A stretch of 64,000 bases of DNA. Source: a virus (taxonomy: Duplodnaviria; Heunggongvirae; Uroviricota; Caudoviricetes). The notes beneath the pieces are model-generated. The model was not told where the DNA came from. It was given only the letters and a program-made list of their open reading frames with translations, and did not search any database. Below, one piece after another: positions 23,163 to 59,361 of the stretch. A program made the position numbers and the translations under genes. The stretch lies in IMG/VR virus record IMGVR_UViG_2703718833_000007, positions 1-64,000 of that record; one strand, written 5' to 3'. How positions within the stretch are numbered: position 1 is the stretch's first letter; each line of letters starts with the position of its first letter.

Positions 23163-23352
23163 ATGCCTTATTGCTGTGATTGTTTTGCTTTATATCGCTG
23201 GCGCGATCCTGATGTCATGTTTTATTAAGGTTAGCGGCGCTGAACATGGTGGCCTTGAGATTCCCTTCTGGCCTGTATTGGTTTTTCTCGCTTTCTTTGA
23301 TGCTACGGTAGTGCAGATCAAGCGAGCCATTAAGGAGCGCAAGAATGATTGA
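23152..23352 (+). CDS. small membrane protein (two TM helices)
   Basis: Hydrophobic segments; start overlaps upstream stop. Confidence 0.35.
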   Translation: MMIECLIAVIVLLYIAGAILMSCFIKVSGAEHGGLEIPFWPVLVFLAFFDATVVQIKRAIKERKND

Positions 23353-23527
23353 AGATGGCATCTATGGTGTAAACCTTATTGAAAACGTATTTTACATGGT
23401 TGATGGCGATACCGTGACAATCAGCGTAAACGGTGGTGAATATGTAGAGCCATTCTTCAAAACAACAAAGGAAGACATTAAGCGAAGCGTTGATAAAGGC
23501 GTACTATTTAAGGTTGGCGAACTATGA
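23345..23527 (+). CDS. hypothetical protein (60 aa)
   Basis: Operon-context ORF. Confidence 0.35.
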   Translation: MIEDGIYGVNLIENVFYMVDGDTVTISVNGGEYVEPFFKTTKEDIKRSVDKGVLFKVGEL

Positions 23528-23700
23528 GCGAGATAGAAGACGGTATCTATTTTCACAAGGTATTTAACATCGTCTATTTACTTAGAGGTGAATCGGTGAT
23601 GATAAAACCTGATGATGATCCGCATTGGGAATCAAGCGACATGGATCGGTGGCATATGCAAACATTGCTAGATAATGGCCTGATATACAGAAAGCAGTAA
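23524..23700 (+). CDS. hypothetical protein (58 aa)
   Basis: ATGA overlap; below track cutoff. Confidence 0.3.
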   Translation: MSEIEDGIYFHKVFNIVYLLRGESVMIKPDDDPHWESSDMDRWHMQTLLDNGLIYRKQ

Positions 23701-23765
23701 AGCCGTATTTGTGGAGCGAAAACAAACAGATTAAAATATTCTCTAACAATGCGAAACTGTAACTA

Positions 23766-23787
23766 CCCGGCCCCGCGCCGGGTTTTT
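23766..23787 (+). terminator. rho-independent terminator immediately upstream of lysis cassette (tR-prime-like)
   Basis: CCCGGC-CCCGC-GCCGGG hairpin followed by TTTTT, about 20 nt before holin RBS. Confidence 0.5.
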
Positions 23788-23807
23788 GCTTTGTTGGAGG
23801 TAAATCT

Positions 23808-24008
23808 ATGTTCGAAAGAATACGGGAGGCGTGTGCGTATGTGGCTGGTGCAGTAACCGCTTTTTTCGGCGCGATAACCATCAATGACGTTGCCGTCTTT
23901 GTGGGTATCTTATCAACCATTGGCACATTTGCCGTTAACTATTACTTCAAATCACAGGAGAACAAGAGGGCGCAAGAGGAACACGACGCACGAATGGGGA
24001 ATAAGTAA
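23808..24008 (+). CDS. pinholin (phage 21 S-like class II holin)
   Basis: 66 aa, two TM helices, charged C-terminus; precedes SAR endolysin; GGAGG RBS. Confidence 0.65.
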   Translation: MFERIREACAYVAGAVTAFFGAITINDVAVFVGILSTIGTFAVNYYFKSQENKRAQEEHDARMGNK

Positions 24009-24009
24009 C

Positions 24010-24501
24010 ATGATTAGCCAATCGCTGAAAAACCGACTAACTAAGGCGGCGGCTGGTGGAACGTTAGCCATTGCATCTGTTTTGCTTGTATGGGTTGAGG
24101 GTACGGCTTACGAGCCTTATTACGATACCGGAGGCGTGCTAACTGTATGCAATGGCATAACCGGCCATGATGTTGTCCCTGGTAAGAGATATACACCGGA
24201 TGAATGCGAGAGACTTTTGCAAAAGCATTTAACCGTTCACAAAAAGGCGGTTGATCGTTATGTAAAAGTTGACATGAATGATTATCAACGCGCAGCGCTA
24301 ATTAGCTTTTCATACAATATCGGGGTTGACGCTTTCAAAAAATCAACCTTGTTAAAAAAAATAAACAAAGGCGACTTTAAGGGAGCGTGTAAGGAGATGG
24401 ATCGCTGGGTGTATGACAATGGGAGATATATACAAGGCTTAAAGAATCGTCGCGATATTGAACGTGCTATATGTGAATGGGGCGTAACCAATGGAAAGTG
24501 A
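24010..24501 (+). CDS. SAR endolysin (GH24 phage lysozyme with N-terminal signal-anchor-release helix)
   Basis: 163 aa from ATG 24010; weakly hydrophobic Gly/Ala-rich N-terminal helix; lysozyme motifs recalled as similar to phage 21 R. Confidence 0.8.
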   Translation: MISQSLKNRLTKAAAGGTLAIASVLLVWVEGTAYEPYYDTGGVLTVCNGITGHDVVPGKRYTPDECERLLQKHLTVHKKAVDRYVKVDMNDYQRAALISFSYNIGVDAFKKSTLLKKINKGDFKGACKEMDRWVYDNGRYIQGLKNRRDIERAICEWGVTNGK

Positions 24502-25012
24502 TGATGAACTAAAACGAAAGCTACACTACGATCCAGCGACAGGTATTTTCACCTATAAGATTAGTCCTCACGGGAGAATCAAGGCCGGAAGCGTAGCCGG
24601 GTGTAAGCATAAAAGCGGATACATACACATAGGAAGATATAAAGCGCATCGCCTTGCGTGGTTTTTCCATTATGGAGTGTGGCCCGAAAAGGACATTGAC
24701 CATATTAATGGAATAAAAACCGACAACAGGATAGTAAACCTGCGAGAAACAGATGATGCGCATAACTGCAGAAACAAGAAACATATTGCCACTCACACAT
24801 TGTCTGCATTCAGGGGTGTTAGCTACCACAAAACAGAGAGAAGCAAGCCTAAATGGCGAGTAAGAATTACCGACAATGAAGGTAAGCGTATATCTATTGG
24901 TTTATTTGACTCACTAGACGAAGCGATCGCCGCTCGCATTTTGGCGGAAAACTTTTTCTATGGTGAATATGCACCTTCGATGGGTTGCGAGGGTGAAACA
25001 TGGACAAGGTGA
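24491..25012 (+). CDS. HNH endonuclease with AP2 domain, copy 3 (divergent), inserted between endolysin and Rz
   Basis: IDHINGIKTDNRIVNL HNH_3 motif and AP2-like RGV...W segment. Confidence 0.7.
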   Translation: MESDDELKRKLHYDPATGIFTYKISPHGRIKAGSVAGCKHKSGYIHIGRYKAHRLAWFFHYGVWPEKDIDHINGIKTDNRIVNLRETDDAHNCRNKKHIATHTLSAFRGVSYHKTERSKPKWRVRITDNEGKRISIGLFDSLDEAIAARILAENFFYGEYAPSMGCEGETWTR

Positions 25013-25470
25013 AGACGTTAATCATCGCCGCTGTTGTTTGCATCATTGCCGGGCTTGCTGCCGTAACGTGCTATTACCAGGGTGAAACGGCAAGGTTGCA
25101 GGAAGAAGTCACGGTGACGAAAGGCGCGCTAAAAACAGCAAGTAACACTATTCAGCAGATGAAGGAGCGAAACGCAGAACTGTCAAAACTTGATAAGAGG
25201 TATCACGATGAGATTAAAGCTATCAGATCTGACATTGCCGATCTGCGCACTGGCATTGATAACGGCACTATCAGGCTGCGCGTCAACGCAATACCAGTGC
25301 GAGTGTCCGACTCCACCGGAACCGCCAGCCGCATTGATGGAGCCTCCTGTAGACTCACTCCCGACGCTGAATCGGCTTATCTATCCCTCAGAGAACAACT
25401 AAAAGAGAAAGATGCGAAGATAACCGCGCTTCAGGGCTACATCAAAACGCAGTGCTTACGCAAAGAATAA
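25000..25470 (+). CDS. Rz-like i-spanin
   Basis: 156 aa; N-terminal TM helix, coiled-coil periplasmic domain; contains embedded Rz1 frame. Confidence 0.7.
   Translation: MDKVKTLIIAAVVCIIAGLAAVTCYYQGETARLQEEVTVTKGALKTASNTIQQMKERNAELSKLDKRYHDEIKAIRSDIADLRTGIDNGTIRLRVNAIPVRVSDSTGTASRIDGASCRLTPDAESAYLSLREQLKEKDAKITALQGYIKTQCLRKE
25208..25402 (+). CDS. Rz1-like o-spanin (lipoprotein embedded in Rz, alternate frame)
   Basis: 64 aa; signal peptide with LSGC lipobox, proline-rich mature region. Confidence 0.7.
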   Translation: MRLKLSDLTLPICALALITALSGCASTQYQCECPTPPEPPAALMEPPVDSLPTLNRLIYPSENN

Positions 25471-26999: not shown

Positions 27000-27485
27000 A
27001 TGGCCCGCACTAAAAAGGCAAAGGCTGACGATAAAAAGCCAGCAGCTAAAAAGGTGGGCCGTCCGCATGGTTATACCGAAGAAAAGGCATTAGAGATCTG
27101 TGAGCTGGTGGCGGACGGTCAGAGCGTTAACAAAATTTCAAAAATGCCAGGTATGCCAACACGTTCGACAATCCTTAAGTGGTTCCGTGATGTGCCTGAA
27201 TTTTCGGACATGTACGTGAGAGCGAAGGAGATCGGTTTTGAGGTATTAGCTGATGAGATCATCGATATAGCTGACGCAGCTGAGAATATTGATAAGGATG
27301 AATTGCGCCGCCATCAATTAATGATTGAAACCCGTAAATGGCTATTGGCAAAACTGCAACCGCGTAAATATGGTGAACGCGTCACGCAGGAAATCGTTGG
27401 TAACAGGGAGGAATCACCCGTCCAGGTTGAAGTCACGAAAGAAGAGATCGCCCGCATCGTCCAGGAAGTAGAAGACGAGGTGTGA
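27000..27485 (+). CDS. terminase small subunit
   Basis: 161 aa; basic N-terminus, HTH-like segment, directly upstream of large terminase; GAGGTGA RBS. Confidence 0.65.
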   Translation: MARTKKAKADDKKPAAKKVGRPHGYTEEKALEICELVADGQSVNKISKMPGMPTRSTILKWFRDVPEFSDMYVRAKEIGFEVLADEIIDIADAAENIDKDELRRHQLMIETRKWLLAKLQPRKYGERVTQEIVGNREESPVQVEVTKEEIARIVQEVEDEV

Positions 27486-54749: not shown

Positions 54750-54871
54750 GCAGGTGAATGCAACGTCAAGCGATGGGCGTTGCGCTCCATATTGTCTTAC
54801 TTCCTTTTTTGAATTACTGCATAGCACAATTGATTCGTACGACGCCGACTTTGATGAGTCGGCTTTTTTTT
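54750..54871 (+). ncRNA. fnrS: FnrS small regulatory RNA
   Basis: Between zntB and dbpA; begins GCAGGTGAATGCAACGTC and ends with GCCGACT...AGTCGGC hairpin plus T8; matches recalled FnrS locus. Confidence 0.6.
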
Positions 54872-59151: not shown

Positions 59152-59361
59152 TTAATTTGAATACAATGCAATTCTCGAGGACTGAAGTTTCTCGCAATTA
59201 AAATTTATCAGTTTTACTTTCTGCTCTCTGGAAACGCCTGCTTCTTTTTTACCTGAGAGCATTTTTTCGCATTCTGATTTCGTTAGTTTAGATTTTGAAT
59301 ATCTTGTCCAGTTAGTAGGAGTGCCACCTTCCTTTTCAATAGTGGCGGTAATTTTATACAT
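59152..59361 (-). CDS. rcbA: Rac small protein RcbA-like
   Basis: Track ORF 93 aa; likely 69 aa from MYKITATIEK; assignment from recalled Rac gene order. Confidence 0.5.
   Translation of the reverse strand: MYKITATIEKEGGTPTNWTRYSKSKLTKSECEKMLSGKKEAGVSREQKVKLINFNCEKLQSSRIALYSN

Follow-up and report, generated by a model that had tools for sequence, protein, structure and literature searches.

Free-standing homing endonuclease genes (HEGs) such as segG and mobE of phage T4 are intron-less genes that lie beside conserved genes, show presence/absence polymorphism, carry their flanks along when they move, and are linked to a divergent, presumably immune allele of the neighbouring gene (PMC2790892, PMC2988022). 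We analyzed a stretch of 64,000 nucleotides of the virus record IMGVR_UViG_2703718833_000007 (positions 1 to 64,000; hereafter, the window), in which a gene encoding HNH_3 and AP2 domains (the HNH gene) lies between the endolysin and Rz spanin genes of a lysis cassette. The HNH gene appears to share these properties with the T4 genes and most likely works like the free-standing HEGs of T4 that co-convert their neighbours. It differs from them in its HNH_3 and AP2 domains, in its location in the late operon of a temperate phage, and in its overlaps with the genes on both sides. Additionally, its open reading frame (ORF) is fused to the tail of a displaced gene, and its activity is a predicted one.

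HNH combined with AP2 is an architecture already known from HEGs, which mark the boundaries of recombination in phages (PMC10448857). The surveyed homing endonucleases of this kind (IPA-HNH and relatives; Barth et al., PMC10448857) have the same two domains as the protein of the window and are likewise found at the boundaries of exchanged segments. However, they mostly adjoin genes for DNA polymerase, ribonucleotide reductase or terminase, and no association with a lysis cassette is given in the text of PMC10448857. The closest positional precedent is the GIY-YIG HEG between the spanin genes of the T5-like phages Shivani and phiR201, which occupies an overlapping-gene junction in a lysis cassette and leaves its neighbours intact (PMC6139136). 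That HEG belongs to a different endonuclease family, is located at the Rz/Rz1 junction rather than the endolysin/Rz junction, and is carried by virulent phages, with no linked replacement of the upstream gene described.

As for the lysis genes, the cassette of the window is in itself of an ordinary kind and resembles that of phage 21 in gene order and logic, in the full-length homology of the endolysin including its signal-anchor-release (SAR) helix and catalytic triad, and in the embedded Rz/Rz1 pair. It differs in a holin that falls outside the S21 family and lacks the Met1/Met4 dual start, in an endolysin linker that is 6 residues shorter, and in the HNH gene between R and Rz. The cassette of Haemophilus phage HP1 offers a second comparison, since the holin of the window fits the HP1 family and is paired with a SAR-type GH24 endolysin (PMC7312051). 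HP1 has another host and is another type of phage, no endonuclease gene has been reported in its cassette, and its pinholin is an experimental one, whereas the holin of the window is known from sequence.

Our results suggest, with a probability of roughly 0.7, that the HNH gene belongs to a lineage of free-standing homing endonucleases that is specialised on the endolysin/spanin junction and spreads by gene conversion together with its own endolysin allele. This is a known kind of mobile gene, of which the window holds a clean and fresh example, and no new mechanism is involved. The open-access literature that we searched describes no HEG lineage that is dedicated to the endolysin/Rz junction, and the present one appears to be a defined lineage of this kind in temperate enterobacterial phages. 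It also offers a concrete route by which a selfish gene can enter an overlapping, coupled gene pair and leave both genes unbroken, namely by bringing a replacement for the upstream gene and reading out through the tail of the old one. This would provide a mechanism for the abrupt replacement of endolysin alleles in prophages, which bears on phylogenies of endolysins and lysis genes and on phage engineering.

Replacement of the endolysin block

The sequence-only reading had described the HNH gene as an insertion that split the cassette. Comparison with HNH-free relatives (mEp021, MagusPhagus, and E. coli prophages) does not bear out a precise insertion, as 951 bp of the window (24034-24984) stand in the place of 437 bp. 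In these relatives, the endolysin gene overlaps Rz directly by 13 nt (ATGGACAAGGTGA). All 7 related phage records, all 35 matching RefSeq E. coli genomes, and all 37 IMG/VR loci have this HNH-free R/Rz junction. By BLASTN, similarity between the window and the HNH-free relatives is lost at 24074-24080 and regained exactly at 24985. In the multiple alignment, the true left edge of the block falls 24 nt into the endolysin gene, at 24033/24034. The two endolysin alleles defined in this way share 51-54% identity in protein and approximately 57% in DNA. The left junction is different in one locus, L015.

Divergence within and around the block differs sharply. Among 11 loci, identity is 96-100% within the block and 68-95% in the flanks. 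Between the window and the ten other prophages, 17-21 mismatches were counted over the 951 nt (approximately 2%), whereas the holin gene is 6-10% divergent and the first 116 nt past the block are 10-32% divergent, the change occurring exactly at 24985. The endolysin allele of the window (≥96% identity) was followed by the HNH gene in all 11 places examined, and the next nearest lysozyme was 57% identical and HNH-free. Megablast of the cassette against 50,697 phage records and 5,426 complete E. coli genomes returned no record over the HNH gene or the endolysin body, and the "distant" search mode gave only short patches of 64-78% identity. Scans of one-per-species GTDB genomes and IMG/VR with the window endolysin retrieved only the HNH-free mEp021-type allele (48-56%) and two lysozymes of 39% identity, one of them from Stenotrophomonas.

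Past the right end of the block lies a trace of the gene that it displaced. Ten members of the clade agree throughout the HNH protein as far as ...APSxGC and differ beyond it. The C-terminus reads ...APSMGC/EGETWTR-stop in the window and GC/EWGETWTR-stop in L009, compared with CEWGE[K/T]WTR-stop at the end of the HNH-free endolysin; thus, the HNH ORF of the window reads in frame through the final 9 codons of the resident endolysin, counting its stop. In a relative from Salmonella (L018), 22 amino acids of an RrrD/R21-type endolysin C-terminus are fused to the HNH protein, and the lysozyme of the same locus ends in KKKIKGLMNRREIEKKICNW before its stop. Judged from these alignments, the variable HNH tails are remnants of displaced endolysins.

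All five ORFs of the sequence-only reading were confirmed in their places on the + strand, together with their overlaps, which are 11 nt between the endolysin stop and the HNH start (ATGGAAAGTGA) and 13 nt between the HNH stop and the Rz start. The latter corresponds nucleotide for nucleotide to the ancestral endolysin/Rz overlap, and therefore no new selection is needed to explain it. A junction of an endolysin 3' end with an Rz-type start is present on both sides of the HNH gene, because separating two overlapping genes without truncating either requires two copies of it. The HNH start codon may even be the recycled Rz start of a duplicated junction. The motif at the left overlap, and ATGGTCAAAGATGA in L015, resemble that at the right one, but their frames relative to the endolysin stop differ, and the resemblance is suggestive only.

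The HNH-AP2 protein and its relatives

The identification of the gene as HNH-AP2 was confirmed structurally for its C-terminal domain. The Pfam AP2 model scored 23.2 bits on this protein, under the cut-off of 33.3. In the AlphaFold2 model (predicted local distance difference test score, pLDDT, 88.6), Foldseek matched the C-terminal domain to AP2/ERF DNA-binding domains (7wq5, E=2e-4; 1gcc and 7et5, root-mean-square deviation ~2.1-2.2 Å, probability 1.0). Residues 167-173 (EGETWTR), which make up the leftover tail apart from its first Cys (residue 166), had pLDDT values below 50 and were modelled as disordered. Residues H53, D70, H71, N79, N83, and N95 of the HNH protein are invariant in 82 homologues. 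The median pairwise ratio of nonsynonymous to synonymous substitutions (dN/dS) over 17 distinct alleles was 0.10 for the HNH gene and 0.09 for the endolysin gene. The HNH gene is under purifying selection.

HNH relatives with 73-95% identity all came from mEpimmI-like prophages of E. coli, and those with 59-63% identity from Salmonella, Yersinia, the Morganella phage IME1369_02, and metagenomes. The order lysozyme/HNH/spanin was conserved in all nine HNH relatives (59-88% identity) and in the Morganella phage. The phage backbones with a lysozyme-linked HNH gene include three terminase types, and one of them is ordered lysozyme-HNH-Rz-holin. As a control, we examined 159 loci carrying HNH relatives of ≤50% identity, and a GH24 lysozyme lay within 2.5 kb in only one. 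No close relatives of the HNH protein were found in one-genome-per-species GTDB contigs or in IMG/VR. Dozens of draft assemblies and metagenomes carry the gene.

In L021 and the E. coli lineage, the HNH gene begins within the end of the lysozyme gene, overlapping its stop. In L018, L019, L023, and L005, the HNH gene begins 89-151 nt past the lysozyme gene, behind a hairpin and a run of T. Three of these loci (L018 2350-2500, L019 2354-2500, and L023 2403-2500, from Salmonella, Yersinia, and a metagenome) have a conserved non-coding spacer of 100-150 nt between the lysozyme stop and the HNH start, with the inverted repeat AGCCTCG...CGAGGCT followed by the T-run. Rfam returned nothing for the conserved spacer in the Salmonella and Yersinia relatives. 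This spacer may control expression of the HEG. A truncated HNH copy of 119 amino acids (P0006), 85% identical over 67% of the length and annotated as "Fis family transcriptional regulator", was also found in an E. coli assembly and is probably a decayed copy.

Proposed homing and rival explanations

We infer endonuclease activity, a target site, and homing for this lineage, which would proceed as follows. The HNH enzyme, made late with the lysis proteins, would cut or nick the HNH-free endolysin/Rz region of a co-resident relative, either in a mixed infection or when an HNH-free relative meets the prophage. Recombinational repair would then copy the HNH-carrying genome, with homology available only to the left of endolysin codon 9 and to the right of 24985. 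Because the endolysin alleles are only ~57% identical in DNA, exchange would resolve only outside the 951-bp block, so that the cleavage-immune endolysin allele and the HNH gene would be converted as one unit. In the product, the HNH ORF would start in the tail of its own endolysin allele and run on into what remains of the resident endolysin, ending at the original stop of that gene. Since this stop overlaps the Rz start, Rz initiation would be left as before.

The purifying selection, the position specificity, and the leftover tails, which are specific to each backbone, support the prediction of an active element. A plausible target is the stretch encoding W-x-G-L-x-x-R-R-x-x-E, approximately 20 codons before the endolysin stop, because the longest leftover tail (that of L018) begins there. 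A more far-reaching proposal, which we offer tentatively and rate somewhat below even odds, is that the HNH-AP2 lineage is an active "endolysin-allele drive". Such an element would target this stretch in the conserved 3' third of SAR-endolysin genes, or the endolysin/Rz overlap, in temperate enterobacterial phages. It would carry an obligatory cleavage-immune endolysin as cargo, would enter the translationally coupled R-to-Rz chain through a duplicated junction, and would have replaced endolysins repeatedly across backbones and genera.

Several observations weigh against homing. A sequence search of PDB with the HNH domain found no match, and solved HNH homing enzymes such as I-HmuI were not among the Foldseek matches of the HNH model. 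A block of low divergence could also be obtained by ordinary recombination in the flanks without an endonuclease; a block too divergent to recombine with HNH-free alleles would have a more recent coalescence in any case. We also considered whether the HNH-linked lysozymes form one clade across genera and rejected this, as the HNH-free lysozyme of L236 nests among those of Salmonella and Yersinia (70-73%). There is thus no single lysozyme clade at depth, and the endolysin as cargo is established only within the E. coli group. Lastly, our search of complete RefSeq E. coli genomes turned up no copy of the HNH allele, indicating that it is not sweeping there.

The sequence-only reading had proposed that the endonuclease gene was inserted cleanly between endolysin and Rz and that the translational coupling was kept by selection on lysis timing. 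Both HNH junctions are indeed overlaps (11 and 13 nt), and the HNH stop lies at or near the spanin start in most lineages (-13 in the E. coli group, -16 in L019, -8 in L021, -4 in L023, and +1 in L015). In-frame deletions distinguish the leftover tails from one another, a pattern that some selection for termination at the Rz start could produce. However, the replacement of 437 bp by 951 bp took in nearly the whole endolysin gene, and the overlap of HNH with Rz is the ancestral one of endolysin with Rz. Tight coupling on both sides is also absent from part of the clade, given the 89-151-nt gap after the lysozyme in the four loci mentioned above and gaps of 588 nt (L018) and 136 nt (L005) between HNH and spanin. 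It is the upstream, unaffected holin that determines when lysis occurs, and therefore preserved coupling would bear on the supply of Rz/Rz1 rather than on timing. For these reasons, we regard a precise insertion shaped by selection for lysis timing as improbable. At the sequence level, the tight coupling is derived or lineage-specific on the left side and inherited on the right side. Some selection for translation that ends at the Rz initiation site may nevertheless act, as several independent tails run in frame to the spanin start.

Ordinary mosaicism would explain the same arrangement as an endolysin-HNH module moved by general recombination, with the HNH gene as a passenger that has become inactive or domesticated and has ceased to home. 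Mosaicism is the rule in lambdoid-type phages and is seen in the flanks here; the HNH activity is a predicted one, a truncated copy exists, and neither RefSeq complete genomes nor IMG/VR contain the HNH allele. Nevertheless, we consider this explanation unlikely, as the dN/dS of 0.10 and the invariant catalytic residues argue for a working HNH protein. The same junction is occupied in at least 6 unrelated backbones from four genera, each with its own leftover endolysin tail, which is hard to obtain without site-specific invasion, and HNH relatives that fall outside the clade hardly ever have a lysozyme nearby. A role as a packaging accessory like HK97 gp74, in partnership with the terminase approximately 2 kb downstream, was rejected as barely credible. 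Phages commonly have HNH genes upstream of their terminases (PMC10448857), and terS and terL start at 27000 and 27482 in the window. However, the HNH gene is not adjacent to the terminase, being separated from terS by Rz/Rz1 and other gene(s), and it is missing from viable isolates of the group (mEp021, mEp010, others, and MagusPhagus). In addition, HNH_3 with AP2 is a HEG-type architecture, the terminases are Sf6/P22-like (PF20901, PF17289), and the HNH lineage tracks lysozymes across the three terminase types.

Lysis genes and prophage setting

The features of the cassette are listed in Table 1. All five proteins scored above the Pfam curated cut-offs, PHROGs gave matching functions, and the five-gene order was repeated on independent contigs; the arrangement is not a product of chance. 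None of the five proteins matched NCBIfam above cut-off. The endolysin gene starts at the ATG located 1 base past the holin stop, in agreement with the annotation of mEp021; the mechanical ORF list had placed this start at 23884.

Table 1. Coordinates of the lysis cassette, the replaced block, and associated features in the window
Feature	Position	Strand	Size and basis
GC-rich hairpin then T-run, just 5' of holin	23765-23790	+	terminator scan; annotated terminator in mEp021
Holin	23808-24008	+	66 aa; PF16080 54.9 bits (cut-off 28.8); phrog_20
Endolysin, R21-type SAR GH24 lysozyme	24010-24501	+	163 aa; PF00959 140.4 bits
HNH-linked haplotype block	24034-24984	+	endolysin codons 9-163 and HNH codons 1-165
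HNH-AP2, free-standing HNH_3 and AP2, homing-endonuclease-type	24491-25012	+	173 aa; PF13392 52.0 bits (cut-off 24.8); phrog_99 E=6.6e-61
Leftover 3' end of resident mEp021-type endolysin (C-E-G-E-T-W-T-R-stop)	24986-25012	+	DNA/protein alignments
Rz i-spanin	25000-25470	+	156 aa; PF03245 85.7 bits; phrog_13 E=5e-40
Rz1 o-spanin lipoprotein, wholly inside Rz, +1 frame	25208-25402	+	64 aa; PF06085 35.3 bits (cut-off 27.9); phrog_3198

The hairpin ahead of the holin is probably a late-operon terminator that is read through by a Q-like antiterminator. Neither a promoter-like site nor a strong terminator was detected in the interior of the cassette, and therefore the HNH gene is probably co-transcribed with the late lysis genes. 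Just 5' of the hairpin, two small ORFs (60 and 58 aa) overlap in tandem at 23345-23527 and 23524-23700. They are paralogues that match phrog_15318, a family of unknown function (E=1.6e-18 and 2.7e-30).

The earlier description of the holin as phage-21-type did not stand. The phage 21 S model (PF04971) scored 22.2 bits, under its cut-off of 26, and covered only the second transmembrane domain (TMD2). No BLASTP alignment to S21 was obtained at E≤100 (the S21 sequence used is 100% identical over 71 aa to that of phage 21, OL657228). A dual-start motif is lacking, as the protein has a single starting Met (MFERIRE...) with one Shine-Dalgarno sequence (GGAGG) upstream, and the next Met is residue 62. 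RefSeq relatives are named "HP1 family phage holin", and the sequence places this protein as a class II holin of the HP1 family and not of the S21 family, which corrects an annotation habit. The two transmembrane stretches proposed earlier are present, with hydropathy peaks at residues 9-23 and 29-43, and pinholin behaviour is plausible through the HP1 family (PF16080) instead of through phage 21. Experiments on HP1 Hol, the founding member of that family, support a pinholin that is paired with a SAR endolysin (PMC7312051). TMD1 of the window holin consists of 56% G/A/S/T, compared with 55% in S21. Its mean Kyte-Doolittle hydropathy of 1.82, against 0.16 for the SAR-TMD1 of S21, makes pinholin behaviour uncertain, and we describe the protein as a probable, putative pinholin. 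In L009/L010 (1811-2026), the same endolysin and HNH block lies behind a different holin allele of 70 aa, which scored 25.7 bits on the phage 21 S model (cut-off 26) and 67.8 bits on the HP1 model. The scores of this allele on both models imply that the HP1 and S21 holin families grade into each other.

For the endolysin, the sequence supports a SAR-type GH24 enzyme resembling R of phage 21. Phmmer against PDB aligned it with phage 21 R (3hde, E=9.7e-44) and with RrrD of an E. coli prophage (4zpu, E=7.7e-44) from residue 5, and the homology therefore includes the N-terminal helix. The triad E30-x8-D39-x5-T45 has the R21 spacing and aligns with the R21 catalytic region. The putative SAR helix comprises residues 13-29 (nt 24046-24096; AAAGGTLAIASVLLVWV), preceded by a net charge of +3, and consists of 53% Gly/Ala/Ser/Thr (65% in R21 and 56% in mEp021). 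The shorter linker between the helix and the catalytic Glu is shared with the HNH-free mEp021 allele. A regulatory Cys in the SAR helix serves disulfide caging in P1 Lyz and is absent from the R21 type. The window endolysin has Cys only at residues 47, 66, 127, and 155 and none in the helix, and it is therefore R21-like rather than P1-Lyz-like. Thus, the protein agrees with the R21-type SAR family in each sequence feature that could be compared.

Whether the N-terminus is instead a Sec signal peptide that is cleaved off, or an anchor that stays in the membrane, was also considered, as the A-I-A motif at residues 20-22 resembles a signal-peptidase site and the mean hydropathy of the helix (2.02) is as high as that of an ordinary TMD. 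However, the helix aligns residue by residue with the SAR domain of R21, which has the same AIA(S) motif and a hydropathy of 1.99, and R21 is established as an uncleaved SAR endolysin with solved structures (3hde/3hdf). The hydrophobic stretch also leads directly into the catalytic Glu30, with no polar c-region, and we find a signal peptide or anchor distinctly improbable. We infer SAR release for the endolysin and pinhole formation for the holin: the endolysin would be exported by Sec and tethered by its weakly hydrophobic helix, and depolarisation of the membrane by the holin would then release and activate it.

Rz with an embedded Rz1 lipoprotein frame (lipobox LSGC) was likewise borne out (PF03245 and PF06085). 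Rz has an N-terminal TMD with a hydropathy peak of 3.03 at residues 8-22 and a periplasmic coiled-coil domain, with weak matches to coiled-coil families. The Rz1 start is offset from that of Rz by 208 nt (25208-25000), which gives the +1 frame. It has AGAGG 7 nt ahead of its ATG, and its mature part (CASTQ...) is 41 aa long with 9 Pro.

The nearest phages were mEp021, mEp010, mEp013, mEp044, mEp515, mEp554, and MagusPhagus, with 90-93% nucleotide identity. The mEp phages form the "mEpimmI" group of temperate coliphages (PMC11893012), and neither lysis genes nor HNH are mentioned in the paper on this group. Phage homology stops at approximately 53,340, the right end of the prophage, and the host small RNA (sRNA) genes FnrS (54750-54867) and RalA (59177-59355), the only Rfam matches in the window, lie beyond it. 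The window therefore represents an mEpimmI-type E. coli prophage with flanking chromosome. RalA is the antitoxin sRNA of the RalR toxin of the rac prophage, and its presence nearby places the prophage close to the rac region. No tRNA genes were found in the window. A 258-kb contig of GCA_001575935.1 and two metagenome contigs encode an identical HNH protein in the same gene arrangement.

A sub-threshold match to Hammerhead_3 (31.3 bits against a gathering score of 48.5, E=0.0035) was seen 5' of the lysis genes in a P22-like metagenomic phage (L023 1062-1123). A second variable spot of the phage group to which the window belongs lies immediately 3' of Rz. There, a 603-nt ORF with no Pfam match overlaps the end of a longer Rz in two prophages that lack HNH, those of E. 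coli MLI107 (L003 2662-3264) and STEC308 (L004 2665-3267). In an IMG/VR viral contig (L057 3683-4171), a different HNH_3 and AP2 gene, whose product is 34% identical to the HNH protein of the window, lies 3' of Rz.

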